Shown here one piece after another: positions 1-62,713 of a DNA stretch of 64,000 nucleotides. The notes beneath the pieces were generated by a model. It was not told the origin of the DNA, did no database searches, and saw only the letters and a list, made by a program, of their open reading frames with translations. The number at the start of each line of letters is the position of its first letter. Positions within the stretch are counted from its first letter, which is position 1. The DNA comes from Patescibacteria group bacterium (GTDB lineage Bacteria; Patescibacteriota; Patescibacteriia; Buchananbacterales; UBA6539): NCBI GenBank assembly GCA_041662625.1, contig JBAZSB010000001.1, positions 855,710-919,709 of the forward strand. The letters are read 5' to 3'. Position numbers and translations under genes: made by a program.

Positions 1-89
1 TAACGGTATAATTGTTATTTTTTTGGCTTATGCTTTAGTTTATGTGATGTTATTTTCAATGGGTGGAGCTATAGGTAGTAAATAAAAAA

Positions 90-494
90 ATGTTTTTAAA
101 AAAAATTAATTTAATAACAATAATTGCCCTTTTACTTTTTAATTTTCTGCTAGCCGATATCAGTCAAGCGAGTGTTTTTGAGCAAATTATGAAAGGATTC
201 TCCACGACTGGTGATAAGGCGGGTTATGCCCTAAGTGGTCAAGCTCCGGCTCAAGAATTTGTTCCAGCTTTTATGGCTTATATCAATAGCTTCTTGGCTA
301 TAATAGCTGCTTTATTCATGGTCTTGATAATTTATGGCGGCTACCTTTGGATGAATGCCCGCGGCCGCGAGGAACAAGTTGAACGGGCAAAAAAATTAAT
401 TCTTGGTGCTGTTATTGGTATGGCTATAATTTTAGGCGGTCGTATGATTGCCGAACTAGCTTTATTTGTCCTGAATAAAACTTTACCAACATAA
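90..494 (+). CDS. Small secreted/membrane protein, paralog 1 of 7 (signal peptide plus C-terminal 2-TM hairpin); TrbC/VirB2-like pilin-type architecture
   Basis: N-terminal hydrophobic signal peptide, hydrophilic segment, then the conserved core IYGGYLWMNARGREEQVERAKK..ILGAVIGMAI shared with the next six ORFs. Confidence 0.55.
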   Translation: MFLKKINLITIIALLLFNFLLADISQASVFEQIMKGFSTTGDKAGYALSGQAPAQEFVPAFMAYINSFLAIIAALFMVLIIYGGYLWMNARGREEQVERAKKLILGAVIGMAIILGGRMIAELALFVLNKTLPT

Positions 495-919
495 TGAAAA
501 AACACCTTAGATTAATCAGCAGTTTCCTTATAATTTCTTTCTTGGTGCTTGTGTTTCTGCCAAACACCGCTTCAGCCGAATCAATCTTCCAAAAGATGCT
601 GGGTGGCTACAAAACCGCTGTCAATAAAGCCTACGGCGGTGAAACCGGCGCTAAAACAAATATCGGCACTTTTTCGGGTGGCTTATTTATCATTGTCAAT
701 TATCTCTTAACATTAGTTGGAATTGCCTTTTTCTTACTTTTAATTTATGCCGGCTACCTTTGGATGACGGCACGTGGTAATGAAGAACATGTTGAACGGG
801 CAAAAAAAATCACTCGCGAAGCCGTAATTGCCTTACTTATCATCCTTTTGGCCAGAATCTTCACCGAGCTTGTTATTTATTACATCGGTAGTGCTGCTAC
901 TTCTACCCCAACCCCATAA
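494..919 (+). CDS. TrbC/VirB2-like small membrane protein, paralog 2
   Basis: Core IYAGYLWMTARGNEEHVERAKK; the start overlaps the previous stop (ATGA); same architecture as paralog 1. Confidence 0.55.
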   Translation: MKKHLRLISSFLIISFLVLVFLPNTASAESIFQKMLGGYKTAVNKAYGGETGAKTNIGTFSGGLFIIVNYLLTLVGIAFFLLLIYAGYLWMTARGNEEHVERAKKITREAVIALLIILLARIFTELVIYYIGSAATSTPTP

Positions 920-924
920 CAAAT

Positions 925-1347
925 ATGACAAAAATCAGAAAACAAATTATTATCTTCACCCTTTTGGCAATAATAGTGACCGGCCTTTTACCAACCAATT
1001 TTTGTTCGGCCGAAACGGTATTTGAAAGGATGAACAAAGCCCTTTCTACTTCAGACTTACCTACTGGCGGATCAAACCCCGATGCCAAAGCTCAAGAAAT
1101 CGTGGGAAAAATTATTGCCACTTTTTTAAGTATTTTCGGTATTATGTTTATGGCCTTAATGATTTATGGCGGCTACAAATGGATGATGGCTTCTGGCCGG
1201 GAAGAAGAAGTAAAAAAAGCCAAGGATACCATCCGGGCCGCCATTATTGGCTTAATTATTGTGATGATGGCCTATGCCATTAGTTACTTCGTGGCCAGCG
1301 GCCTCCAAAGGGCAACTACTGGTACTAGTACTGAATCAACAAAATAA
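925..1347 (+). CDS. TrbC/VirB2-like small membrane protein, paralog 3
   Basis: Core IYGGYKWMMASGREEEVKKAKD..IIGLIIV; signal peptide plus 2 TM. Confidence 0.55.
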   Translation: MTKIRKQIIIFTLLAIIVTGLLPTNFCSAETVFERMNKALSTSDLPTGGSNPDAKAQEIVGKIIATFLSIFGIMFMALMIYGGYKWMMASGREEEVKKAKDTIRAAIIGLIIVMMAYAISYFVASGLQRATTGTSTESTK

Positions 1348-1351
1348 TCTT

Positions 1352-1753
1352 ATGAGCAAAAAAATAACAATTATTCTACTAGCAGTTACTACCTTGATGG
1401 TTTTAACTTCCATTATTGCCCCATCGGTATTGGCTATTGATATTACTAACAAATTACAAAATGTTGGTAATAACGCCGGCTATCCCAAAGATAATGCTAA
1501 TTCTTTACCTCAAATAATTGGTTTAGTAATTAAAGGCTTGCTTTCGCTTCTGGGCATTATCTTCATGTGTTACATTATCTATGGTGGCTATCTTTGGATG
1601 ACTGCGTCCGGCAAAGAAGAAAGTATTACTAAAGCCAAAGCCATTATTAAAGGCAGTATCATCGGCATAATTGTTGTTTTGGGTGCCTATGCTATTACGG
1701 AATTTGTGGTTGGCGCGGTCATCAGCGGCACTGGCTATTCAAAAACCGGATAA
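1352..1753 (+). CDS. TrbC/VirB2-like small membrane protein, paralog 4
   Basis: An in-frame ATG at 1352 (MSKKITIILLAV...) gives a signal peptide. Core IYGGYLWMTASGKEESITKAKA. The ORF-track start at 1274 overlaps paralog 3 and is unlikely. Confidence 0.55.
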   Translation: MSKKITIILLAVTTLMVLTSIIAPSVLAIDITNKLQNVGNNAGYPKDNANSLPQIIGLVIKGLLSLLGIIFMCYIIYGGYLWMTASGKEESITKAKAIIKGSIIGIIVVLGAYAITEFVVGAVISGTGYSKTG

Positions 1754-1772
1754 TAAATAACCCTTAACTAGC

Positions 1773-2183
1773 TTGATAAAAATGATTAAAAAATACCAAA
1801 AAGAAATCCTAAGCGCCATAATTTTAATTTTACTCCTAGCGCCAACCCTGCTTTTAGCGGCTAACCTAGATGCCTCCCGAAGCGACTTAGAAAAAAATTT
1901 AATGGAAGGAGCCAGTAATGCCGGCTACAAAACCACGGGTGGCCAATCATCAATAGCCGTTCTGGCCGGCACCGTAGTCCGCATGTTTCTTTCACTTTTA
2001 GGTATTATTTTTATTGGCTACACCATCTATGCGGGCTATCTTTGGATGACGGCGGGCGGTAATGAAGAAAATGTGACAAAAGCCAAAAATATTTTACGTA
2101 ATGTGGTTATCGGCTTGATTGTTGTTTTGGCTTCTGCTGCAATTTATCTATTTATTAAAACTGCTTTCACTGGTGCTGAGTAA
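1773..2183 (+). CDS. TrbC/VirB2-like small membrane protein, paralog 5
   Basis: Core IYAGYLWMTAGGNEENVTKAKN..VIGLIVVL. Confidence 0.55.
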   Translation: MIKMIKKYQKEILSAIILILLLAPTLLLAANLDASRSDLEKNLMEGASNAGYKTTGGQSSIAVLAGTVVRMFLSLLGIIFIGYTIYAGYLWMTAGGNEENVTKAKNILRNVVIGLIVVLASAAIYLFIKTAFTGAE

Positions 2184-2217
2184 GGCAACAATCAAATTTA
2201 AAAATAAACTAGAACAA

Positions 2218-2634
2218 ATGCCAAAAGCAACAAAAATCCTAACTTTTATCGCCCTCGTTATTTTAGCTAATTTTTTATTAACCAGCCTAAATGTCCAAGC
2301 TGCTACTCAATTAGTTGACCCTAATGTTTTAAATCAAGATACCGAGTTTATTAAAGAAACTGGCCTGGGCACAAAAGTTAGCCTCGGTGATGTGGTGAGT
2401 CGGATAATTAAAATTTTACTTTCCTTTTTAGGTGTTATCTTTTTTCTTTTGATGGTTTATGCTGGTTTCACCTGGATGATGGCCGCCGGCAATGAAGAAA
2501 AGGTAACAAAAGCCAAAAAAATTATGGCTTCCGCCGTTATTGGCTTAGCCATCGTCATTGCCGCCTATACAATTACTTACTTTGTAATTGATAAAATTCT
2601 TGAAGCAACGAAAGGTAGCTCCGGTTTAGACTAA
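2218..2634 (+). CDS. TrbC/VirB2-like small membrane protein, paralog 6
   Basis: An in-frame ATG at 2218 (MPKATKILTFIALV...) gives a signal peptide. Core VYAGFTWMMAAGNEEKVTKAKK. Confidence 0.55.
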   Translation: MPKATKILTFIALVILANFLLTSLNVQAATQLVDPNVLNQDTEFIKETGLGTKVSLGDVVSRIIKILLSFLGVIFFLLMVYAGFTWMMAAGNEEKVTKAKKIMASAVIGLAIVIAAYTITYFVIDKILEATKGSSGLD

Positions 2635-2658
2635 CTATTTATAACCAAATAAAACCTT

Positions 2659-3078
2659 ATGAAAAAGAACCTCTTAACTTTTTTCGGCCTGATTATTATC
2701 ACTAGTCTATTAACTTTGGTCCTAGTCCCCGTTCCGGTTTTGGCTGACGAAGAAATTGGCGATTTGATTGAGAATCAAATGGAGCCGATTCAAAATATTT
2801 ACGGCCAAGAGCAGGTTTCACCGGATACCTTTGCCGTTGCGGTGGCAAAAATTATTTCGATTGTGCTGGGATTTTTAGGCATTATCTTTTTAGTCTTAAT
2901 GATTTATGCTGGTTTCACCTGGATGACAGCAGCCGGTAATGAAGAAAGTATAACGAGAGCAAAAAAAACCATGATCGCCGCCGTCATTGGCGTGGCCATT
3001 GTTTTAGTGGCCTACGCCATCACTGTCTTTGTGATTAATTCTTTGCTAGAAGCTACAGGCGCCGAAGGATTTGAATAA
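2659..3078 (+). CDS. TrbC/VirB2-like small membrane protein, paralog 7
   Basis: Core IYAGFTWMTAAGNEESITRAKK..VIGVAIVLVAYAITVFVI. Confidence 0.55.
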   Translation: MKKNLLTFFGLIIITSLLTLVLVPVPVLADEEIGDLIENQMEPIQNIYGQEQVSPDTFAVAVAKIISIVLGFLGIIFLVLMIYAGFTWMTAAGNEESITRAKKTMIAAVIGVAIVLVAYAITVFVINSLLEATGAEGFE

Positions 3079-3101
3079 ACTAAAATCAATAATTTGTTTT
3101 A

Positions 3102-3128
3102 TCCCGACTTCGTGTCGGGATTTTTTTT
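3102..3128 (+). terminator. Rho-independent terminator ending the paralog array
   Basis: TCCCGAC-ttcgt-GTCGGGA 7-bp stem followed by T8. Confidence 0.7.
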
Positions 3129-3131
3129 AGA

Positions 3132-3240
3132 TTAACCCCCACACCTATTCCACCTATTAAATTTATATTTAAATAATCTTTTAGTAAATAAATAAATTAT
3201 CGATTCAGATGCTAATTAGCAAAATAGGTGTGGGGGTTAA
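3132..3240. mobile_element. 109-bp MITE-like element with perfect 18-bp terminal inverted repeats
   Basis: TTAACCCCCACACCTATT at 3132-3149 and its exact reverse complement at 3223-3240. The core is AT-rich. The element is flanked by TTAA, which could be a target-site duplication or part of the TIR. Confidence 0.5.
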
Positions 3241-3279
3241 TGCCTTGTTTTTGCCCCAAAGGCAAGGTAAAATAACTAC

Positions 3280-5235
3280 ATGAAAAAAGAAAGCTTAATT
3301 AATCATTTTATTACCAAAAAAAGTCGATGGGTAATAATTTTAGCCATCATTTTTTATCTTGTTTTATTTGGCTTTATCAGTCTTTGGAAATATTACAACT
3401 TTGGTTATAACGCCTTAGACTTAGCCATCATTAACCAGGTTTTTTATAATTCAAGCCAGGGGAATTTCTTTGCTTCCAGTATCCATCCGCCAACATACCT
3501 GGGTGATCATTTCTCACCGATTTTATTTCTGCTTCTGCCTTTTTATTGGCTTTGGCGCTCCCCGCAAATTTTGTTGATTTTTCAAACTCTTATTTTAGCC
3601 GCTTGCAGTTGGCCATTATACCTAATCACCAAAAAAGTGCTGGGACAAAGCTGGGCTCTTGGGTTAGTTTTAATCTGGCTACTTAATCCCTTTGTCCAAA
3701 ACATCAATTTGTTCGAATTCCACTTTTTGGCTTTGGGCATCTTTTTTATTTTTTGGGCTTTTTATTTTTACCAAAACAAAAATTTATTTGCTTATTTACT
3801 TATTTGCCTGCTGGCGCTAATGGTTCGGGAGGATTTAGCCCTAGTAATTATACTGTTTGGCCTGGTTGCTTTCTTGGAAAAACGGGGATGGCGCTGGTGG
3901 CTTGTAACAATTCTCCTGAGCGGGCTTTATTTTATAGCGGCTTTAAAAATTACCAGTTTTTTTGCTCCTGGGGAACAATATAAATTCTTAATTTACTATT
4001 CCTGGCTGGGCCAAACTCCGGCCCAAGCCCTGAATCACCTGGTTTTCCAACCCTGGCTTGTCATTCAGCAATTATTCAGATTTAATAATATAATCTTTAC
4101 TTTGGCACTTTTTTTACCCTGGGTATTTCTGCCTCTAATCAATCCTTTTTATCTTTTGCTAGGTTTAGGAATCTTTCTCCAATTGACACTGGGAAGTGGC
4201 GGCGGCTCCACCACAATTTTAGATACTTACTATTCAAGTCTGCTTTTACCGCCAATTTTTATTGCTGCCATTTATTCCTTAAAAAAAATTATTGATAATA
4301 AGTCAGATATTAGCCAAAAAATCCAAAATTATCGAGGGCTAGTCGGCTTAATTTTTGTTACTGGCATTATTTATTCCACCCTAACCCTTGGGCCAATTGT
4401 TGGCAGTCTGAATAAAATTTTTCAAACTGGCTTAATCTCCCCAACCAGCCAAAGTAAAAAAGAATTTATCGAAAAAATTCCTCCTGATGCGGCCGTGGCT
4501 ACAACTTACGATTTTTTGGCTCCCCTTTCTTCCCGGACAAACCTTTATTCATTTAATTACATTTTTTTGGGTAAACAACAATTCCTAACCAAAGACTATG
4601 CCCTACCAGATGACACCAAGTATTTGCTGATTGATTACAATGATTTCATCACTTACCAACTTCAGTATGGTAAAAATTTATTTTATCAGGCTCAATACCA
4701 AAAAGCAGCAAAAAATTGGCCAAAAACGCTATTAGGTTTTGGCCTAGTAGAAATCAAAGATAGCTTGGCTTTATACCAAAAAGGAGTAGCGGATAAATTC
4801 TCCTTAGTGGAAGTGCTACCAGAAATTCCTGCGGGGCTAAAAACAAAAAATTTGGTAATTACACCTGAAATAAAATTTATTGGTTTTAAAAAAATTGACA
4901 TGCAGTACCAACTATTCTGGGAAATCAATTTACCATTAACAAAAGATTACCAGCTTAACCTGTCCTTAGGCGGTGATGGAATCACTGAGACAAAGACTTA
5001 CCCTTTTGCTTATAATTTACTACAAACCGATAACTTGGGGGGTCAAACTATAATTCAAACCAACTATTGGCCAGATTTTATCAAAAAAGTCCCAAGCGGG
5101 ACCTATAATTTAAAAATTGATTTATCTGAAATTCAAGCGGGCGGGATTGAAGTCGATCAAATCCGATCAACGAAAAATGTAGTGGACCGAGAAAAGTTAA
5201 TTGGCGAAGTTTTAATTGGTCCAATTAATCTTTGA
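3280..5235 (+). CDS. Integral membrane protein (DUF2079-like N-terminal multi-TM domain) with a C-terminal extracytoplasmic domain
   Basis: 651 aa. The N-terminal 330 aa are polytopic. YYNFGYNALDLAIINQVFYNSS is reminiscent of DUF2079-family proteins that accompany GT clusters. Confidence 0.4.
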   Translation: MKKESLINHFITKKSRWVIILAIIFYLVLFGFISLWKYYNFGYNALDLAIINQVFYNSSQGNFFASSIHPPTYLGDHFSPILFLLLPFYWLWRSPQILLIFQTLILAACSWPLYLITKKVLGQSWALGLVLIWLLNPFVQNINLFEFHFLALGIFFIFWAFYFYQNKNLFAYLLICLLALMVREDLALVIILFGLVAFLEKRGWRWWLVTILLSGLYFIAALKITSFFAPGEQYKFLIYYSWLGQTPAQALNHLVFQPWLVIQQLFRFNNIIFTLALFLPWVFLPLINPFYLLLGLGIFLQLTLGSGGGSTTILDTYYSSLLLPPIFIAAIYSLKKIIDNKSDISQKIQNYRGLVGLIFVTGIIYSTLTLGPIVGSLNKIFQTGLISPTSQSKKEFIEKIPPDAAVATTYDFLAPLSSRTNLYSFNYIFLGKQQFLTKDYALPDDTKYLLIDYNDFITYQLQYGKNLFYQAQYQKAAKNWPKTLLGFGLVEIKDSLALYQKGVADKFSLVEVLPEIPAGLKTKNLVITPEIKFIGFKKIDMQYQLFWEINLPLTKDYQLNLSLGGDGITETKTYPFAYNLLQTDNLGGQTIIQTNYWPDFIKKVPSGTYNLKIDLSEIQAGGIEVDQIRSTKNVVDREKLIGEVLIGPINL

Positions 5236-6889
5236 TGACTTGATAAATTTGGACTTGGCCAGACTCAAAAACTAATCTTAAGTAATTTTTAGTGGCTGGA
5301 TCAAAACTACCCAGCTTTTTTTCATAATCACTATAAAAAATATAGTCAATCCCTTGCTTGTTTAAAAATTCTTTTTTGGCAGAATCTTGAGTATTATCTT
5401 TCAAAAACCAAATTAAATAAGGCAACTTGGAATCATAAAACAAGGTTTCGTGCAAATGAGCTAGATATACTGGCTGGCCAGAAAAACCGGGAATAAATTT
5501 TGCCGGCATTTCACTGGCCAAAACCACTTGGCCCAAAGGCTGATTTTTCAGCCAAGCCATGGCCGAAAGTACATCTTGGCTAAAATAAAATTTTTCTTTT
5601 ACTTCCTTTGGCTGAGCCGTAAAAAAATATAAATCGCGATAGAGGTTAAATAATGTTGATGGGCTAAGCAAAACAATAAACAAAACGCCCAGTAAAAATG
5701 GGTTTTCCACTAAAAAATTAGAGTAACTAGGTTTAAGTTTTGTTTTCAAGTAATCATATAAATAAAATAAGCCGGCAACGGTAAAAATCACCAAAACTAC
5801 ATGCAAGCCTTGAGTATAACGGCTATGAAAAGGCAGGGGTGAATAAATCAAAGCCAAATCTACCAAAAGCCAAACTAAGAGAAAAATGAAAGAATTGGTA
5901 AATTTTTTATTCCGCCCAAGAAAAACTAAGCCCAAAATCAACCCTAACCAAAGCCAGCCATAGCCCACGAAAACAAAAATTGGCGGCGATATAAAAGTTA
6001 CATTTTGGGCGGCCCGCTGGGCAATTACGGCACTGTTTTGAATCAACCAAAAATGATAAAAAATTGAAGGGGCAGAAAGTAAAAAAACTAAAATTAAATA
6101 CATCGCTTCAGTCCATAAAAATCTTTTGGCTTCTAGCATCAAAATAAAAAGGTACAGCCCCCCCACCCCAAAAATAACCGGGACATAATAAGGATGAAAA
6201 TTAAAATAAAATAAAGCTAAAACTCCACTAACCAAAGCATAACTAAGCTTTCTCTTTTCAAAAGCCAAAAGCATCAATAAAAAAATTAAAAGCATCAAAG
6301 TGATTGAAGCGATAAAATGAGAGGTTTGATATAAAGTGTTAAAGGTATTGGCCTCAGGTATCCATAAATCAATCGGCCAGCGATAAATTGAGGTATCAGC
6401 TAGGCCGAGCTTAAAAACCGGACCGGCAAAATAAAAACCAATGCCTGAGGCAAAAAATAAAAAAATTAAACAGATTTTCCGCTTCAGGACTTCAGGAAAA
6501 ATATAGCTAATAAAAAGATAGGCCACAAAAATAAAAATGGGAATCATTAAAATCCGAGAAAGCTGAAAACCCAATATGAGCGGCACGTGAAAAAATCTTA
6601 CCCCTAAGCCAACCAATGTCCACCAAACATTAAAAGTGCCCAAAGTCTGGGGCTCACTGGTAAATAAATCTTTAACCAAAAACTCACCTGAAGTAACTTG
6701 ATTAATATAAGAATAGTAAACCGGAATATCGCCCGGGCTTAAGGCGTGTAAACCATTATAAGCTGTTTGGCTCGGCGCATTTAAATAACCAACTAAATAA
6801 GGCAGGCCGGTTAAAATAATAATAACCACCGTTAGGATGGCGACAAACTGCCATTCTTTTTTGGAAATTGATTTAATTAGTTCCTTCAT
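5225..6889 (-). CDS. GT-C-fold-like polytopic membrane protein (putative polyprenyl-phosphate-sugar-dependent glycosyltransferase)
   Basis: 554 aa with more than 10 TM segments and a soluble C-terminal domain. Paralogous to 6910-8586: the C-terminal ends are shared (YIFYSDYEKKLGSF..YLRLVFESGQVQIYQV versus FVFYTKYEKSLGNF..YLKLVYKNPEVEIYQAW). Confidence 0.4.
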   Translation of the reverse strand: MKELIKSISKKEWQFVAILTVVIIILTGLPYLVGYLNAPSQTAYNGLHALSPGDIPVYYSYINQVTSGEFLVKDLFTSEPQTLGTFNVWWTLVGLGVRFFHVPLILGFQLSRILMIPIFIFVAYLFISYIFPEVLKRKICLIFLFFASGIGFYFAGPVFKLGLADTSIYRWPIDLWIPEANTFNTLYQTSHFIASITLMLLIFLLMLLAFEKRKLSYALVSGVLALFYFNFHPYYVPVIFGVGGLYLFILMLEAKRFLWTEAMYLILVFLLSAPSIFYHFWLIQNSAVIAQRAAQNVTFISPPIFVFVGYGWLWLGLILGLVFLGRNKKFTNSFIFLLVWLLVDLALIYSPLPFHSRYTQGLHVVLVIFTVAGLFYLYDYLKTKLKPSYSNFLVENPFLLGVLFIVLLSPSTLFNLYRDLYFFTAQPKEVKEKFYFSQDVLSAMAWLKNQPLGQVVLASEMPAKFIPGFSGQPVYLAHLHETLFYDSKLPYLIWFLKDNTQDSAKKEFLNKQGIDYIFYSDYEKKLGSFDPATKNYLRLVFESGQVQIYQVIKD

Positions 6890-6909
6890 AGTAGGTGATA
6901 CTTTTTATT

Positions 6910-8586
6910 TTACCACGCCTGGTAAATTTCAACTTCCGGATTTTTGTAGACTAATTTAAGATAAGATTTTTGGCCGGGCTGAAAATTACCCAGACTTTTT
7001 TCATACTTAGTATAAAAAACAAAATCAATTTTTTGGGCTTTAAGCCAAGCCTCTTTCTGATCGTCGATATCATTTGTACTAAAAAACCATTTTAAATCAG
7101 CCAATTTTTGGTCATAATTAACAGTCTGATGCAAATGACCAATATAAACTTTGTCACCGGTGATGGCCGGCATTGGATTTGCTACCCGAGGGGTGGCTAA
7201 AATTGTTGAGGGTTTTTCCGCTTTCAACCGAAGAGCGGCTTGGTAGTAACTGGCCGGAAAATAAAAAGCTTCATCATGACGCTGGTAAAAAATTAGATTG
7301 GAAACAAGAACCGAAATATTAGATAAAGCCAAAATAAAAAATAAGAAGATAGTAATTAAATAAGGAATAATTTTTAATTTGATTCGAGAAAAAAATAAAT
7401 CTAAAAATTTTACTGCCCCAAGTGACGCAAAGATGACCAAAGGGATAAAAACGGTGCTCAAAACCCGCCGTTGCTGGGAAAATGGTAAATAGGCTAAGAA
7501 TAAGTTAATTAAAAGCCAGCTTAACAAAAAAATAAATTTCCAGTCATTTTTTTTCGGCCAAAAATAGATTCCGGCCAAAGCAAAAATAAAAATTAGACCG
7601 TAACCGGTCAACAACCGAAAAATTGGCGGACTTTCGGTAAAGTTAGTCTGATTCCAAACAGGAAAAAACGGGTCAAACTTAAATAAAATCAGATAATAAA
7701 CAAAAATGGCGCCAAAAGCAGAAAAAATTATTCCTAGCCGTAAAATGAGTGGCTTTAAATCCACGACTTTTTGTTTAGTTAGCAAGTGAAAATACCAAAT
7801 AATCAAAACAAAAAAACTGGAAACAAAAGCAACCGTGATTAAGTCGTAGGGATGAAAAAATCCTAAAAATAAAACTAAGAGAAATAAACCAGTAATCAGC
7901 CAGTAATTCAGCTTAAGCTCGGAATTAATAAATAAATAAAAAATTAGCAATTCAACCAATAAAGCCAACGGTAATAGAGGGGAATGAAAAATATTAACAA
8001 AAACATTAAGCTCGGGCAAAAAAAGGTCAGCGGAAATCTGGTTAATAATCTCTAAGCCATTTAAATGAGAACTGAATTCCACAAACAAAGGATGTAAAAA
8101 GGCCCCAATTCCTGAGCCGAAAGCCAGCAACAAAAAACCAATTTTCCGCTGCCAAACGTCTTTGACAAAATAAGCAAGAAATAAATACAAAAAAATTAAA
8201 AGGCAAAAGCCAAAAACAATCCGGGCCACCTGATAGATAAAAATTTTGGGCAACTGACTTAACTTAACTAGTAAGCCTAAAAACAGCCAAAAAGGCTGAA
8301 CCATTAATGAATAGGCTAAATCGTGAGAGTAAAGATTAGCCAAAAAAAATTTCCCAATACTAGCCTGCTCCATTAAAGATAAATAGACCGTGATATCACC
8401 AACGTTAGTATAATTGCTCCATAAAAAATAATCATTGGAACTAAGATAACCATAAAGATAAGGTAGAGTGGTCAAAATGATCACTACTCCCCCGATAATC
8501 CAAACAAAGCGCCATTCTTTGTCTGAGACGGAATTAAAAATTTTACTTAAAGTCATTTTTTTAATCTTAAAAGCAAAACCTGCCAA
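6910..8586 (-). CDS. GT-C-fold-like polytopic membrane protein, paralog of 5225-6889
   Basis: 558 aa with the same architecture and C-terminal motif. Confidence 0.4.
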   Translation of the reverse strand: MAGFAFKIKKMTLSKIFNSVSDKEWRFVWIIGGVVIILTTLPYLYGYLSSNDYFLWSNYTNVGDITVYLSLMEQASIGKFFLANLYSHDLAYSLMVQPFWLFLGLLVKLSQLPKIFIYQVARIVFGFCLLIFLYLFLAYFVKDVWQRKIGFLLLAFGSGIGAFLHPLFVEFSSHLNGLEIINQISADLFLPELNVFVNIFHSPLLPLALLVELLIFYLFINSELKLNYWLITGLFLLVLFLGFFHPYDLITVAFVSSFFVLIIWYFHLLTKQKVVDLKPLILRLGIIFSAFGAIFVYYLILFKFDPFFPVWNQTNFTESPPIFRLLTGYGLIFIFALAGIYFWPKKNDWKFIFLLSWLLINLFLAYLPFSQQRRVLSTVFIPLVIFASLGAVKFLDLFFSRIKLKIIPYLITIFLFFILALSNISVLVSNLIFYQRHDEAFYFPASYYQAALRLKAEKPSTILATPRVANPMPAITGDKVYIGHLHQTVNYDQKLADLKWFFSTNDIDDQKEAWLKAQKIDFVFYTKYEKSLGNFQPGQKSYLKLVYKNPEVEIYQAW

Positions 8587-9257
8587 AAACTTTCTAAAAT
8601 TATTTTAAGATTAAATTTCGATTTGCCTTCGGCCCGTTCCGTAAAAATGATGGGGATTTCAGCAATTCTAAAACCGGCTTGATAGGCCTTAAAAGTAGTT
8701 TCAATTTGAAAATTATAACCAACTGAACTTAAATCAGCCAAATTAATTTTTTCTAAAACCGCGTGTCGGTAGCATTTAAAACCACCCGTCAAATCTTTAA
8801 GCGGTAAATTCAAAATCAAACGGGCGTAAATATTGCCAAACCGACTAATTAAGCGCCGGACCAAATTCCAATTTTTTGTTCCCCCGCCAAAAATATAGCG
8901 GGAACCTAAAACTAAATCATAATCTTTGATTTTATTCAAAAATTCCGGGATATATCTGGGATCATGGGAAAAATCCGCATCCATTTCAAAAATATAATCC
9001 GCCCCGCGCTTCAAAGCTTCGCTAAACCCAGCCAAATAAGCTTTACCTAAGCCGGCTTTCTGCTGGCGGTGTAAAATATCAAGCTGGGGATTAATCTTTT
9101 TTCGTTCTTCAACTATTCGGCCGGTGCCATCCGGTGAATTATCATCAACGACCAAAATATTCAAGCCCTCAATCCCTAAAGCAAAAATTTGTTCAATCAA
9201 CTTGATAATATTATTTTTTTCATTATAAGTGGGAATAACGATGATAATTTTTGGCAT
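8553..9257 (-). CDS. GT2 glycosyltransferase, polyprenyl/dolichyl-phosphate mannose(sugar) synthase-like (Dpm1/ArnC family)
   Basis: IIIVIPTYNEKNNI...VVDDNSPDGTG...EMDADFSH: the GT-A DXD region is typical of Dpm1-like enzymes. Confidence 0.75.
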   Translation of the reverse strand: MPKIIIVIPTYNEKNNIIKLIEQIFALGIEGLNILVVDDNSPDGTGRIVEERKKINPQLDILHRQQKAGLGKAYLAGFSEALKRGADYIFEMDADFSHDPRYIPEFLNKIKDYDLVLGSRYIFGGGTKNWNLVRRLISRFGNIYARLILNLPLKDLTGGFKCYRHAVLEKINLADLSSVGYNFQIETTFKAYQAGFRIAEIPIIFTERAEGKSKFNLKIILESFWQVLLLRLKK

Positions 9258-9259
9258 AA

Positions 9260-9976
9260 TTATTGGCTCTTAATTCTTTTTCTTAAAGCTAAAACTTCTT
9301 TAAAATAATTCCAACTTAAAGCCAACATGTTAACTCGGCTCTTATCAGTGCCTTCCCGCGGATCCTGCCAACTGATAGGTATTTCTTTAATTTTATAACC
9401 TTTTTTTTCGGCCAAAATCACCAGCTCGGAATCAAAAAACCACTGCTGATTGTTAATTAAATCAAGAAGATTTTCTTTAACTTTTTGGTTGATGGCTTTA
9501 AAACCGCAAGGCGCATCATTGATTTTTAAAGCCAAAATAATTTTTAAAACCAAGCGATAAGCCTGAGAAGTTAATTTCCTACCCAATGAACGGACGACTT
9601 TTGATTTCGGATGAAAGCGTGAACCAATCACTAAATCATTTCCTTCCTTAATCCCCGAGATTAACTGGGGCAAAGCAGCTAAATCAGTGGCTAAATCCGC
9701 ATCCATAAAACAATAAATATCGGCTGAGTCCTGCCGCCAAGCAGTTTTGATCGCTACCCCCTTACCTTTTTGACTAACAAATAAATATTTAACCGCTGGA
9801 AACTTAGCTGCTAAATCTTTGCCAATAACAGAAGTTCGATCTTTGGAATTATTATCGGCAATAATAATTTGCCAATCATCGCTTAAGTTCTGCTGGCAAA
9901 AAGCCAAAAGTTTTAAAACACTTTTTTCTAAGATTGATTCCTCATTGTAAGCCGGGATGGCAATTAAAATTTTCAT
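9260..9976 (-). CDS. GT2 glycosyltransferase (Dpm1/ArnC-like), paralog of 61934-62713
   Basis: ILIAIPAYNEE...IIADNNSKDRT...FMDADL; the C-terminal QWFFDSEL...GYKIKEIPISW is shared with 61934-62713. Confidence 0.75.
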   Translation of the reverse strand: MKILIAIPAYNEESILEKSVLKLLAFCQQNLSDDWQIIIADNNSKDRTSVIGKDLAAKFPAVKYLFVSQKGKGVAIKTAWRQDSADIYCFMDADLATDLAALPQLISGIKEGNDLVIGSRFHPKSKVVRSLGRKLTSQAYRLVLKIILALKINDAPCGFKAINQKVKENLLDLINNQQWFFDSELVILAEKKGYKIKEIPISWQDPREGTDKSRVNMLALSWNYFKEVLALRKRIKSQ

Positions 9977-45702: not shown

Positions 45703-47274
45703 TTACCGTCTGGCTTTGTGGGCAGAGGCAATCTCTTCCATACGGGCTCGCAGGGAGCCAGCATCCCGGGCCGGAGCGGCCTGGGAGCGTTCATTGTGGT
45801 GGGAGCGGCCGTTGCCGCCTTTGTGGTCCTGCCGTTGGGGGCGAGTCCGGGGGCGGTCGTCGTGATGCTGGTCGCGGCGTTGGCTGATTTTCACCTGGCG
45901 GCGAACAGCGCAGCAGCGGGGCAGACCCAGCCAGTACATCGGGCAGGTACCACCCGACTGGTCTGGCAGGCGGCACATCCTGCCAGTGGCGCACTGCTCT
46001 TGGCCCCGATGCCACTTGGTCTCATCCAAGGCCAAGGTGATTGCCGCCACGATCTCCTGGGTCGTCAGCAGGGTGGGCTCCACCTCTGGGTGGCTCAGGG
46101 AGCCATTCAGGAGGTTGATGCCGATTGTGATAACGATTGGACCCTTGCCGCGGCGGACCGTGATTTCCTTCTTGGGGTAATGCCAGGCCGGGGCGTCATC
46201 GATCGTGCCTTCGGCAGAGAGGTCTTGCCAGTCTTGGAAGGTGGCCTGCGTCATCTTGCCGGTCCTGATGCGGGCTGCAATCTCGTAGTAGCGGATGGCC
46301 CGGACTACGCTATCGAAGTCGATGTGGCGGTTCCGGCGGTAGAAGATCTGGGTCTGACCGCCTTGCCACCGCATTACCACGATATCGGCCTCGTCGCCAT
46401 ATTTGCTCATGGCCGCACTCGGCATCTGGGCTGCCAACTGCGCCAAAGGCGAGAGCTGATCGCCACGAGGCATGGGTTCGGGCAGCTCGATCACGACGAG
46501 CCGGTACATCAGTCGAACCCACTGGTCTTCACCCTTGGTACGCTTCTTGACCATTGGGCCGGGGATCTCGGCGACTTTGCTGGCCAACTCGCGGTACTTG
46601 CTGACCACTTGGGTCATGAAAGACTCTCGTTGACCGAGATGGGTTGTCAGTAGGAACCGGCCGATTCTGATCGCGGCCAGGGATCCGAACTGACGACCCG
46701 TGCCTTTGCCCATGGCACTCGGTCCAAGCGGATTGCGGTCGCCATTCCGGTCTTCCCACTGGATGTACCCCAGCATGCGGGTGAATACCGGGTCATCCTT
46801 GATACCAAGGATTCCCGCCATCAGACTGGTGGCGCACTCGTGGCGAAATCCGCTCTGGTGTTCGTCCACCGGTCCCTTGGCGATTCCGATCGGCAAAGTG
46901 CCTTCGTGGAGGTGGGCTTCGATGGGCCGACTGTCCGGGGTTTCTTGCGCCGTACCCCAGAATTGAATCAGGTCTGGATCCTTCCTGCCTTTTGTCTTCC
47001 CGCCATCATCAAGGGCCATTTTGATCAGCTTTTCGATGCCCGGGAATACCACCTCTCCCCGATGCTCAAGGAGCACAAGGGCTCCAACTTCGTCAAGGTG
47101 AGGAAAGTGGTGGGTGGCAAGCCGTTTTACCAGCTTACCTTTCCCGCTCGGGTGGGGGGGGAGGAGATCAAGCAAAGCTTGCATCCTTTTCACCTGCTCC
47201 TGATAAGCCGGTGGCTTGCCCCTCTCACTTGTTGCTGCCGGTGTTACTTTCGGTGCTGTGGTGCTTGCTACCAT
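45703..47274 (-). CDS. Hypothetical 523-aa protein on a high-GC (about 60%) foreign island
   Basis: SD AAAGGAGCGGAACC upstream of the ATG; a 10-bp GC hairpin terminator at 45649-45679; strong GC contrast with the flanks; basic disordered C-terminus. Confidence 0.5.
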   Translation of the reverse strand: MVASTTAPKVTPAATSERGKPPAYQEQVKRMQALLDLLPPHPSGKGKLVKRLATHHFPHLDEVGALVLLEHRGEVVFPGIEKLIKMALDDGGKTKGRKDPDLIQFWGTAQETPDSRPIEAHLHEGTLPIGIAKGPVDEHQSGFRHECATSLMAGILGIKDDPVFTRMLGYIQWEDRNGDRNPLGPSAMGKGTGRQFGSLAAIRIGRFLLTTHLGQRESFMTQVVSKYRELASKVAEIPGPMVKKRTKGEDQWVRLMYRLVVIELPEPMPRGDQLSPLAQLAAQMPSAAMSKYGDEADIVVMRWQGGQTQIFYRRNRHIDFDSVVRAIRYYEIAARIRTGKMTQATFQDWQDLSAEGTIDDAPAWHYPKKEITVRRGKGPIVITIGINLLNGSLSHPEVEPTLLTTQEIVAAITLALDETKWHRGQEQCATGRMCRLPDQSGGTCPMYWLGLPRCCAVRRQVKISQRRDQHHDDRPRTRPQRQDHKGGNGRSHHNERSQAAPARDAGSLRARMEEIASAHKARR

Positions 47275-59995: not shown

Positions 59996-61921
59996 ATGAT
60001 GCCATTAAATAAAGATTTGTTTTGCAAGTTCAAAAAGGTTATTGCTAATGAGTATTTTATTATTGCCGCTATTATTTTTTTAGCTTACCTTTTGCGCGTC
60101 CTGCCTTATTTGTTGGGTTATCCCCTGCCTTTCACGGAAAACGGGATAATGGATTTTGACCAAGTTAAATATTTAATTTCTAACCACAAAATCAATTTTA
60201 CCGATAGCTATTATTATTATGGCTCATTTCCAGTTGTCCATTTAATCATTTTTTTTATTTCCCTTTTTGGTTTTGACGCCTTAAAGACTTTTTTGTTTGT
60301 CCCCCAAATTTTTGCCAGCCTAGGGATTTTATTTTTTTATCTATTTCTTAGGAGGTATTTTTCAGTCAAGCAAAGTTTATTTGCTTGTTTTTTAATTGCG
60401 GTTTTTGGTCCGCATATTCATTGGAGTGCCCAACCCGGCCGGGAAAGTTTGGGCTTATTTTTCTTCCCCCTAGTTATTTATTTGTTTGATCGAGAGTTTG
60501 TTGGTGTCACCAAAAAATCTGTTTGGAATAAAATCCTTTTGGTAACCAGTTTGATTTTAATGATTTTATCTCATCATTGGTCGACGATAATGCTGGCTGG
60601 TTGGCTGTTGATTTTCAGTTTTTTATTTATTAAGGAAAAGAAAAAACTTTCAACGGTACTTTTGGTGATTAGTTATTTTGTTGTTTTTGCCATTATTTAT
60701 TGGTATCTGTGTTTTCCTATGGCATTTACTTTAATAAATAATAGAATATATCTTAACTCAATAATTCCTTTAGTTGTCATATTATTAGTTTTTCTTATTT
60801 GGTTAAAGCTTAAAAAATTTAGCCAATTTAATTTAAACCAGCTAAAAATCAGGTATTTACAAGAGTTATCTTATCTTTCCATTGCAATCTTAGTTATTAT
60901 TTTGGCAATGAAAATATTACCCATGCTTTATCCACTTCAGCTTTGGTTGATGTTTATTTTTTTCGCCTTGTTCATTTTGGTTGGATTTTTTAGCAGTCGG
61001 GATAACAACTTGAATAAATTAATGGTCATTAATATTTTTTACCTATCATTTTGGGTAATTACTGTTTTTTATATTATCAACGGTAAACGAATTATTTCTA
61101 TGCCGTTTGACCCTTTCCGAACACTTGAATTTATGATTTTCCCTTCAGCAATTGCCGCGGCTGTTGGTTTCCTTAAATTAACTAGTAACAAAAAATCTTT
61201 GATATTTGGTAGTATCGGTATTCTAATTTTTTTAGCTACCTTAACTTATCCACCCATTTTTATCTATAAAAATAAATTTCAAAATACAATTTTTTATGAT
61301 ATTCGGAGTGAAATTCGGTATCTGCCGTCCGGCATCCCCGAACTGGTTAAATGGGCTAATAATCATGGTTATGGTGTTAAATCGATTATTCCGGAAGTGA
61401 ATGCTTATCAAAGAGTGTTTTTCCCTGCCAAAGAGGATAGTTTGACCCTAGTAACTAATCAGGAAAAATTTATTGCTGATTATTATGATTTGATTAAAGA
61501 TCCGATCCTGAAAATTCCTAATCCAAAATTTTGGGTGGTTGAACGAGATAATCAGGTGGTAGCCTTCGAAAATGATAGCGGTAAGTTGATTCGGCCGCTG
61601 TATGATGCCAGATTTATTTCTTTTGATTACCCCTCGGTTGTAAGTGTGGGTGAAAAACTAGTTATTAAAATTAGATTCAAAAATACCGGCAGTGCCACCT
61701 GGCTACCTAATGAAGTAAAATTGATTGGGGGTAAAACTTTATTTGCCCGTATTGATAAAGCTGTTTTACCTGATGAAGTGGGCGAGTTTATTTTTAGCAG
61801 AACTGTTCCGGCTTTATCCGGCGACGGCATTATTAATTGGTATCCCTATCATCTAAGTGTTGGACTTTTTGGTGATTGGCCTCAGGAAACTAGAATTACA
61901 GTGGTGGGATCAGAACAATAA
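59996..61921 (+). CDS. Polytopic membrane protein with a C-terminal beta-rich extracytoplasmic domain
   Basis: 641 aa, N-terminal multi-TM region. Confidence 0.35.
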   Translation: MMPLNKDLFCKFKKVIANEYFIIAAIIFLAYLLRVLPYLLGYPLPFTENGIMDFDQVKYLISNHKINFTDSYYYYGSFPVVHLIIFFISLFGFDALKTFLFVPQIFASLGILFFYLFLRRYFSVKQSLFACFLIAVFGPHIHWSAQPGRESLGLFFFPLVIYLFDREFVGVTKKSVWNKILLVTSLILMILSHHWSTIMLAGWLLIFSFLFIKEKKKLSTVLLVISYFVVFAIIYWYLCFPMAFTLINNRIYLNSIIPLVVILLVFLIWLKLKKFSQFNLNQLKIRYLQELSYLSIAILVIILAMKILPMLYPLQLWLMFIFFALFILVGFFSSRDNNLNKLMVINIFYLSFWVITVFYIINGKRIISMPFDPFRTLEFMIFPSAIAAAVGFLKLTSNKKSLIFGSIGILIFLATLTYPPIFIYKNKFQNTIFYDIRSEIRYLPSGIPELVKWANNHGYGVKSIIPEVNAYQRVFFPAKEDSLTLVTNQEKFIADYYDLIKDPILKIPNPKFWVVERDNQVVAFENDSGKLIRPLYDARFISFDYPSVVSVGEKLVIKIRFKNTGSATWLPNEVKLIGGKTLFARIDKAVLPDEVGEFIFSRTVPALSGDGIINWYPYHLSVGLFGDWPQETRITVVGSEQ

Positions 61922-61933
61922 TGATTTTGGTCA

Positions 61934-62713
61934 ATGGCTAGCAATTTTTGGCTAGCAGCAGTTAAGATGATTAATAAAATGTTGATAAAAGATAAAATTA
62001 ATATCGAAGTTGATTTGCCGGTTTTTAATGAGCAGGATTGTTTGCAAAAAAATGCCGAGAGGTTGATTGATTTTTTAAAGTCGAGTGATTTTAATTATTC
62101 TTGGCGAATCGTTATCATTGATAATGGCTCCACTGATAACACTCTAGCAATCGCCGAACAGTTGAAGGAGAGATATCCCGAGGTTGACTATCTTAAACTA
62201 ACTCAAAAAGGCCGGGGCCGAGCTTTATGTCAAGCCTGGTTAAAAAGCCAAGCCGACATTGTCAGTTATATGGACATTGATTTAGCTACTGATCTAGCAG
62301 CTTTCCCCGCTTTAATTGATGTAGTTGCTAACCAGGGATTTGATCTTGCCACTGGTTCACGAATGATGAAAGAATCTAAAGTCAAAAGGTCATTCAAAAG
62401 AGAAGTTCTGTCTCGAGGATATATTTTTTTGCTAAGGCATTTTTTACACGTTAATTTTTTAGATGCTCAGTGTGGTTTTAAAGCTTTAAACCGAAAAGTA
62501 ATTGAAAATATTCTACCTCAGGTTTTGGATCAGCAGTGGTTTTTTGATTCCGAGCTTTTAATCAAATGCCAGCGTTATGGTTATAGAATTAAAGAAATTC
62601 CGATACAATGGACTGAAGATAAAGGCAGTAAAGTAGAAATTTTTAAAACTGTGGGTAATTATATATTTTCCGTCTTAAGGTTGAAGAAAGAATTTAAAAA
62701 TTATGAAAAATAA
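61934..62713 (+). CDS. GT2 glycosyltransferase (Dpm1/ArnC-like)
   Basis: VIIDNGSTDNT ... MDIDLATD ... QWFFDSELLIKCQRYGYRIKEIPIQW. Confidence 0.75.
   Translation: MASNFWLAAVKMINKMLIKDKINIEVDLPVFNEQDCLQKNAERLIDFLKSSDFNYSWRIVIIDNGSTDNTLAIAEQLKERYPEVDYLKLTQKGRGRALCQAWLKSQADIVSYMDIDLATDLAAFPALIDVVANQGFDLATGSRMMKESKVKRSFKREVLSRGYIFLLRHFLHVNFLDAQCGFKALNRKVIENILPQVLDQQWFFDSELLIKCQRYGYRIKEIPIQWTEDKGSKVEIFKTVGNYIFSVLRLKKEFKNYEK

Follow-up and report, generated by a model that had tools for sequence, protein, structure and literature searches.

A ten-gene chromosomal array of VirB2/TrbC-like pilin genes in a Buchananbacteria-like member of the Patescibacteria

A stretch of 64,000 nucleotides from the chromosome of a Patescibacteria group bacterium (contig JBAZSB010000001.1; the whole stretch is called the window here) carries near its left end seven small tandem genes, at positions 90-3078 of the plus strand. 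They close a chromosomal array of ten VirB2/TrbC-like pilin genes. We consider it reasonably likely that this array is an operon whose products co-assemble in a filament or channel that depends on VirB4, the ATPase of type IV secretion systems (T4SS). The array proteins belong to the T4SS pilin family PF18895, share one architecture, and are conserved gene by gene in related genomes.

Results

An earlier note on this DNA, made from the sequence alone, had described a tandem array of seven same-strand genes coding for 133-141 aa, and the open reading frame (ORF) list of the window bears out this run at 90-3078. The array itself has ten genes, not seven, because a contig of the same organism (L001), which reproduces window bases 1-6890 exactly, holds three more family members upstream. 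Array gene 1 codes for a protein of 180 aa whose N-terminal part is rich in Cys. Array gene 2 (119 aa; L001 9116-9475) lies outside the window, and array gene 3 (137 aa; L001 9583-9996) reaches into it with its last 27 codons and stop codon (1-85, plus strand), where the window edge truncates this PF18895 paralog. Bases 1-85 thus already belong to another copy: bases 2-85 in frame 2 read NGIIVIFLAYALVYVMLFSMGGAIGSK followed by the stop, identical to the end of the gene in L001. The seven complete genes of the window, array genes 4 to 10, are called g1 to g7 below.

The Pfam family PF18895 (T4SS_pilin, gathering cutoff 26.6 bits) matches all seven window genes with 25.3-41.7 bits, six of them above the cutoff (30.2-41.7 bits). 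The three upstream genes match it with 28.6, 48.7 and 39.5 bits. On these profile scores, we regard membership in PF18895 as solid. The link to the TrbC/VirB2 family PF04956 (gathering cutoff 27.9 bits) runs through array gene 2, the only array member above that cutoff: it scores 29.9 bits and its orthologues 32.3 and 20.8 bits, and none of the seven window genes matched PF04956 at E values up to 1. A profile of the gene-2 type aligned by hhalign with Agrobacterium tumefaciens VirB2, whose sequence was verified against PDB 8cue, at E = 2.2e-4. Profile and VirB2 stay in register from where the mature pilin begins, across helix 1, the conserved Trp and the loop (8 residues longer here), and through helix 2. 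The general family profile reached E = 0.057 only. A relationship to classical VirB2/TrbC pilins thus appears real but distant, and the VirB2/TrbC-like identity that the earlier note had proposed is supported by the family match of all seven genes, by array gene 2 and by the hhalign result.

Among the NCBIfam models, NF045849 (Mbov_0395) is the best match for nine of the ten array genes, over the two-helix core. Its equivalog cutoff is 40 bits; eight genes score 19.4-39.1 bits, g3 scores 43.1 bits, and array gene 1 has no match. By these scores the array proteins are relatives, not members, of the NF045849 equivalog. A tblastn search with array gene 2 against 72,556 plasmids returned no match.

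The seven window proteins can be aligned over their full length, with 13 invariant columns that all fall within the C-terminal two-thirds. In every protein, the first 10 residues hold 2-4 Lys/Arg and are followed by the hydrophobic core of a signal peptide, and in most copies there is an AxA-like cleavage site; in the copies that have one, it lies near residues 23-30. Hydropathy and N-terminal charge give a Sec-type signal peptide and two further hydrophobic helices in all ten array proteins. This is the architecture of VirB2-type pilins: a cleavable Sec signal peptide, two helices and a polar loop in a protein of ~100-140 aa. The AlphaFold2 model of g3, based on 112 sequences, is a helical hairpin (residues 52-88 and 93-132) with predicted local distance difference test scores above 90. 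The shared plan of signal peptide, variable segment and conserved C-terminal hairpin, as claimed before, is therefore seen in all seven. The core of the motif that had been proposed for the hairpin, [IV]Y[GA]G[YF].WM.A.G.EE.[VI]..AK, occurs in seven of seven window genes and at no other site in the six frames of the window; the proposed tail of that motif is one residue off register and does not fit g2 and g5. Across the ten paralogs, mean pairwise identity is 41% in the core versus ~20% in the N-terminal and C-terminal parts, in line with the description of diverged ends around a retained core. A type IV pilin (T4P, PilA-like) was rejected as an identity for these proteins. Such a pilin would have a class III signal peptide with a prepilin peptidase site (G|F/M-x-x-x-E) and one N-terminal hydrophobic helix, whereas the signal peptides here are of the usual Sec type, with AxA-like sites, and are followed by two more hydrophobic helices. 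None of the T4P Pfam families gave a match.

A scan of one genome per species yielded 80 further related loci, to which the counts out of 80 given below refer. The same array between the same flanking genes, SBP_bac_1 and DUF2079, is present in three other genomes (L004, L007 and L009), with ten genes in each, split into nine and one in L007. Positional one-to-one orthologues are 76-96% identical in L004 and 47-85% identical in L007, versus 26-48% between paralogs. The ten copies are therefore older than the species split and have not been homogenised. At the DNA level, repeats between the copies are confined to the core (60-78% identity, period ~430 nt), which argues against recent duplication, and no long DNA repeats or gene-conversion tracts were seen between the copies.

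Since synonymous sites saturate at the 26-48% identity of the paralogs, the ratio of nonsynonymous to synonymous substitution rates (dN/dS) was taken from orthologues. Per gene, the Nei-Gojobori estimate of dN/dS for the window organism versus L004 is 0.04-0.17, values that are rough because dS, at ~0.9-1.7, is near saturation. Six flanking housekeeping genes give 0.06-0.13. By part, the ratio is 0.12 for the N-terminal variable segment and 0.095 for the core; the proportion of nonsynonymous differences (pN) is 0.12 in that segment, 0.23 in the C-terminal tail and 0.08 in the core. The predicted exposed parts thus appear to change 1.5-3 times faster than the core, yet remain far from neutral. 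The diversifying selection that had been suggested for this family is not borne out, as the array genes fall in the same range as their housekeeping neighbours. Judged from these comparisons, the set of ten paralogs is ancient and fixed, with each member under purifying selection. The alternative suggestion of a reservoir of exchangeable subunits fares no better: each paralog keeps its own positional orthologue in the three genomes, and signs of gene conversion were not seen.

Long arrays are typical of this clade. Counted with a local hidden Markov model, the largest same-strand array comprises six genes at 24 loci, seven at 14, nine at 12 and ten at 9. The best-matching loci carry the name Candidatus Buchananbacteria, followed by Falkowbacteria, Magasanikbacteria and Veblenbacteria, all of which we take to be ABY1-class lineages in GTDB. 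Many array-bearing records (L012, L016, L017 and others) are TPA assemblies titled "uncultured Gammaproteobacteria bacterium"; judged from the gene content of these Patescibacteria-type loci, the titles look like a labelling artefact.

Array gene 2 is by far the most conserved paralog, with 96% identity in L004, 85% in L007 and a dN/dS of 0.04. Clear orthologues of its type are found in 47 of the 80 loci, versus 4-9 loci for each of the nine other types. This distribution suggests one core subunit accompanied by lineage-specific ones, and array gene 2 may be that core subunit. In addition, the best-scoring database homologues include three proteins in which two full pilin hairpins are fused after one signal peptide: P0001 (239 aa), P0002 (224 aa) and P0009 (229 aa), with a locus at L008 4645-5364. 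The topology of these fusions is consistent, with four helices and the linker on the outside. Such fusion of pilin domains is the pattern expected of co-assembling subunits, and hints that the paralogs are neighbours in one assembly.

Within the window, the genes follow each other closely on the plus strand. The array continues with g1 (90-494; 134 aa; WC675_04265), with a signal peptide and two hydrophobic helices, whose PF18895 score of 25.3 bits is slightly below the cutoff and whose L004 orthologue is 78% identical. The start of g2 (494-919; 141 aa; 31.0 bits) shares one nucleotide with the g1 stop codon; its orthologues are 76% (L004) and 57% (L007) identical. The highest PF18895 score among the seven, 41.7 bits, is that of g3 (925-1347; 140 aa), the gene that also exceeds the NF045849 cutoff. 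It is followed by g4 (1352-1753; 133 aa; WC675_04280; 30.6 bits; L004 orthologue 82%) and g5 (1782-2183; 39.4 bits), which codes for 133 aa from the ATG at 1782 or, from an alternative TTG at 1773, for 136 aa. The closest paralog pair, at 48% identity, is formed by g6 (2218-2634; 138 aa from the ATG at 2218; 36.8 bits) and the last gene, g7 (2659-3078; 139 aa; WC675_04295; 30.2 bits; L004 orthologue 85%). In the NCBI annotation, the genes bear the locus tags WC675_04265 to WC675_04295 and the label "hypothetical"; they lie on a contig of 922,082 bp in a metagenome-assembled genome. The tight packing described in the earlier note stands; its range of 0-25 bp does not, as the gaps from g1 to g7 measure -1, 5, 4, 28, 34 and 24 bp.

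The array is closed by one intrinsic terminator, as had been claimed, at 3101-3128 (plus strand; ATCCCGAC-TTCGT-GTCGGGAT followed by TTTTTTT). Its G+C-rich stem of 8 bp (3101-3121) precedes the T run and is present also in the predicted RNA fold. Tight packing and a shared terminator suggest co-transcription. The stretch that separates the array from the DUF2079 gene (3079-3279) has an unusually strong predicted fold (-64.7 kcal/mol, z = -8.2). Besides the terminator, it includes an inverted repeat with two perfectly matching arms of 19 nt (3131-3149 and 3223-3241), separated by 73 nt, and a third hairpin immediately 5' of the DUF2079 start codon. The inverted repeat occurs at this single site in the window and, among the fetched loci, in the contigs of the same organism only (L001, L002).

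The array is flanked by a nucleotidyl-transferase gene and an SBP_bac_1 solute-binding protein (SBP) gene on one side and by the DUF2079 membrane-protein gene on the other. The SBP_bac_1 gene (L001 6947-8323), left of the window, ends ~100 bp upstream of array gene 1 and codes for a sugar-type protein of ~458 aa with a lipoprotein-like Cys after the signal peptide. No ABC permease or ATPase gene stands beside it in L001. In 22 of the 80 related loci such a gene lies no more than 55 bp upstream of the array, and in nine of these the stop and start codons overlap as ATGA. Examples elsewhere are at L010 6479-7855, L011 5779-7158 and L013 1044-2414, among others.

The remaining window is ordinary chromosome, with envelope glycosylation genes, glycogen genes, PBP1, yidC, polA and smc, and with dnaN and dnaA at 37.7-40.5 kb. 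In the window, dnaA is ~36 kb from the array. In four relatives it is 5-6 kb away (L015 2497-3843, L028 1941-3308, L043 2318-3664 and L067 2268-3623), a pattern that echoes a published remark on T4SS genes near the replication origin. Two regions, 3280-9976 and 59996-62713, hold the DUF2079 gene, two ~555-aa polytopic membrane proteins without family match and two glycosyltransferase family 2 (GT2) genes, with a PMT_2-like protein farther off in the same envelope-glycosylation surroundings. The C-terminal tails of several pilins are rich in Ser and Thr; SAATSTPTP and TTGTSTESTK are examples. Given these tails and the gene surroundings, glycosylation of the pilins is conceivable.

To check the 80 loci for VirB4, P-loop ORFs of at least 300 aa were submitted to Pfam. 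All those submitted proved to be housekeeping or unrelated ATPases, not VirB4: DnaA, FtsH, ClpB, UvrA, RuvB, Mg-chelatase-like proteins and, at one locus, a PilT-like T2SSE protein. The supplements of PMC12102498, consulted for a listed VirB4 of this organism, do not contain the locus tag WC675. For the window ORFs that already lacked a Pfam match, NCBIfam gave none either, and scanning the window with Rfam and for tRNAs yielded no hits.

A 523-aa ORF on the minus strand of the window (45706-47274), without Pfam or NCBIfam match, lies in a stretch of 53% G+C versus a background of 35-40%; Arg, His and Gln are highly abundant at its C-terminus, and long ORFs overlap it on the opposite strand. 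Further G+C-rich stretches lie at ~50-52 kb and ~56-58 kb. In two relatives, solitary extra pilin genes are found ~6-8 kb upstream of the array (L007 351-716; L009 359-724 and 1775-2137). They flank a mechanosensitive-channel gene and a gene for a conserved secreted protein of 748-761 aa (L007 866-3112; L009 2278-4563), which has no confident family match and no homologue in the window.

Discussion

VirB2-type pilins follow a common route, known from F-pilus and T-pilus structures: Sec export, a membrane pool, VirB4-dependent extraction and helical stacking. By analogy with VirB2, the products of the present array would be exported by Sec, with cleavage of the N-terminal signal peptide. Each would then be held in the membrane as an α-helical hairpin with both termini facing outward and the conserved charged loop (G-N/R-E-E-x-V-x-K-A-K) on the cytoplasmic side. 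A VirB4 machine of the monoderm type, encoded elsewhere in the genome, might pull the subunits out of the membrane and stack them as a surface filament or channel. In such a structure, the conserved loop would line the lumen, and the outer surface would be formed by the variable N-terminal segment and the C-terminal tail. The conservation of the core relative to the two ends matches this arrangement. Family, architecture, array size, orthology and purifying selection are observed, whereas assembly into a filament, VirB4 dependence and co-assembly of the paralogs are inferred; the paralogs probably act jointly as distinct subunits.

Several observations weigh against this reading. Genes for VirB4, VirB6, VirD4, TrsD and PrgI were not found from 10 kb upstream to 61 kb downstream of the array, nor within 10 kb of the 80 related arrays; linkage to a VirB4 ATPase or to VirB6/VirB3-type translocon genes is thus lacking over the -10 to +61 kb interval. 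In ABY1, a VirB4/TrsD/PrgI cluster is reported to lie, for example, near comF, recG or radA. When the PDB was searched profile-to-sequence, neither the paralog profile nor the gene-2-type profile detected a solved T4SS pilin. Fold searches do not discriminate, because the helical hairpin matches hundreds of unrelated chains. The near saturation of dS leaves room for a few positively selected sites. In addition, a VirB2-type pilus in Patescibacteria is still treated as a possibility in the literature (PMC12857230).

The main alternative is that the products are membrane-resident two-helix proteins that build or gate a channel in the cytoplasmic membrane, acting with a T4SS or with adjacent envelope machinery, and do not form a filament. 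They would then resemble the small pilin-like proteins of conjugation systems in monoderm and wall-less bacteria, and their Mycoplasma relatives may likewise stay in the membrane. The arrays stand apart from VirB4, amid genes for DUF2079 and polytopic membrane proteins, GT2 enzymes and an SBP lipoprotein, and the best NCBIfam match, NF045849, comes from integrative and conjugative elements (ICEs) of Mycoplasma; weaker matches are to the conjugation membrane proteins pLS20_p028 and MMCAP2_0566. We hold this alternative to be possible, though unlikely. The extracytoplasmic N-terminal segment of 30-45 residues and the Ser/Thr-rich tails vary between paralogs, which fits surface exposure better than a buried position; array gene 2 exceeds the TrbC/VirB2 pilin cutoff; and ten subunits expressed together would be a large number for a channel in the membrane.

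In the VirB2 duplicates of Bartonella and Anaplasma, paralogs have been proposed to be alternatives, used singly or shuffled. On this model, the genes described here would supply a reservoir of interchangeable major subunits shaped by diversifying selection, which would agree with the concentration of paralog differences in the predicted exposed parts, with the faster change of these parts between orthologues (see the pN values above) and with host-range versatility, raised as a possibility in PMC12102498. We think it very unlikely for this locus, because positional one-to-one orthologues persist in three other genomes, dN/dS is housekeeping-like, long repeats and conversion tracts were not found, and tight packing with one terminator suggests co-transcription, not switching. 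The data agree better with a fixed set of distinct subunits that are transcribed together than with a reservoir of alternatives. Least probable of all is a nutrient-capture device made of the array and the upstream solute-binding lipoprotein, working without a T4SS and pilin-like by ancestry alone: the close and sometimes overlapping linkage in 22 loci, the sugar-binding type of the protein with its lipoprotein-like Cys and the lack of ABC partner genes beside it in L001 speak for it, but it lacks precedent, close linkage is confined to those 22 of the 80 loci, ~100 bp separate the SBP gene from the first pilin gene in this organism, and the pilin array of a member of the Saccharibacteria lies inside a T4SS cluster (PMC10633639).

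Within the framework of a VirB2-like pilin operon, a more specific proposal can be made, to which we give rather little credence. In Buchananbacteria-like Patescibacteria, the array might have left the T4SS locus and come to form an operon led by the SBP gene, near GT-C-like and GT2 glycosyltransferase genes. Its gene-2-type core pilin and nine lineage-specific subunits could then build a heteropolymeric, possibly glycosylated surface filament or conduit by which host-derived sugars are captured or imported.

A large part of bacterial diversity belongs to the Patescibacteria, which apparently live attached to other cells. T4SS and pilin array are essential in the single species tested genetically. 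The present locus leaves the general picture unchanged and adds three constraints. First, the array can be wholly detached from T4SS ATPase genes in this clade. Second, its ten members, ancient, individually conserved and probably co-transcribed, point to a multi-subunit structure rather than to antigenic variation. Third, the frequent coupling to a solute-binding lipoprotein gene fits the speculation of a 2025 review that T4SS and pilus serve as an uptake conduit (PMC12857230).

The kind of array described here has been published before. In a survey based on PF18895 and PF04956, Quinonero-Coronel et al. (2025, PMC12102498) counted 441 arrays, each of 2-11 VirB2-like genes, among 383 Patescibacteria assemblies. 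Identity averaged 25% and reached at most 54%, and the authors suggested adaptation to different hosts. In the same survey, most Patescibacteria genomes have virB4, and the pilin gene is away from virB4 in ~40% of the assemblies that have both. Our array is like these in being a chromosomal tandem of PF18895/PF04956 genes (dnaA, dnaN, polA and smc are in the window), in its ten members and in its strong divergence (26-48%). The published arrays are most abundant in Microgenomatia and Saccharimonadia, whereas the nearest relatives here are titled Buchananbacteria, Falkowbacteria and Magasanikbacteria. The T4SS cluster of Ca. Southlakia epibionticum ML1 includes an essential array of six genes for predicted pilin subunits (Wang et al. 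2023, PMC10633639; PMC12857230); the present array is neither in nor near a virB4 cluster. From the accounts in PMC12102498, PMC10633639 and PMC12857230, the locus differs in its full detachment from virB4, its strict orthology under purifying selection and its frequent coupling to an SBP gene; neither SBP-array linkage nor strict one-to-one orthology is mentioned in these three papers. The Pam pili of a 2026 preprint, a novel pilus of the candidate phyla radiation with an Ig-like fold and donor-strand exchange, are a different system, and T4SS pilins are not mentioned there.

Compared with VirB2/TrbC (PF04956; T-pilus structures PDB 8cue and 8exh), the array proteins are likewise small, with a cleaved signal peptide, two hydrophobic helices, a short charged loop and a conserved Trp that ends helix 1, and array gene 2 passes the family cutoff. 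They differ in a loop that is ~8 residues longer, a longer N-terminal extension, a monoderm host, the lack of an adjacent virB operon and the lack of a PF04956 match in the window genes; no sign of cyclisation or of a pilus was seen for them. With Mbov_0395 and MMCAP2_0565 (NF045849, Mycoplasma ICEs) they share the two-helix core and a monoderm-type T4SS lineage, but the Mycoplasma protein is encoded by a single gene in a mobile element, in contrast to a chromosomal ten-gene array. Finally, the virB2 duplicates of Bartonella, Anaplasma and the Rickettsiales are, like the present genes, diverged tandem paralogs in host-dependent bacteria. Those belong to effector-translocating systems of Gram-negative bacteria, and their paralogs are thought to be antigenically variable, whereas here each orthologue is conserved under purifying selection.

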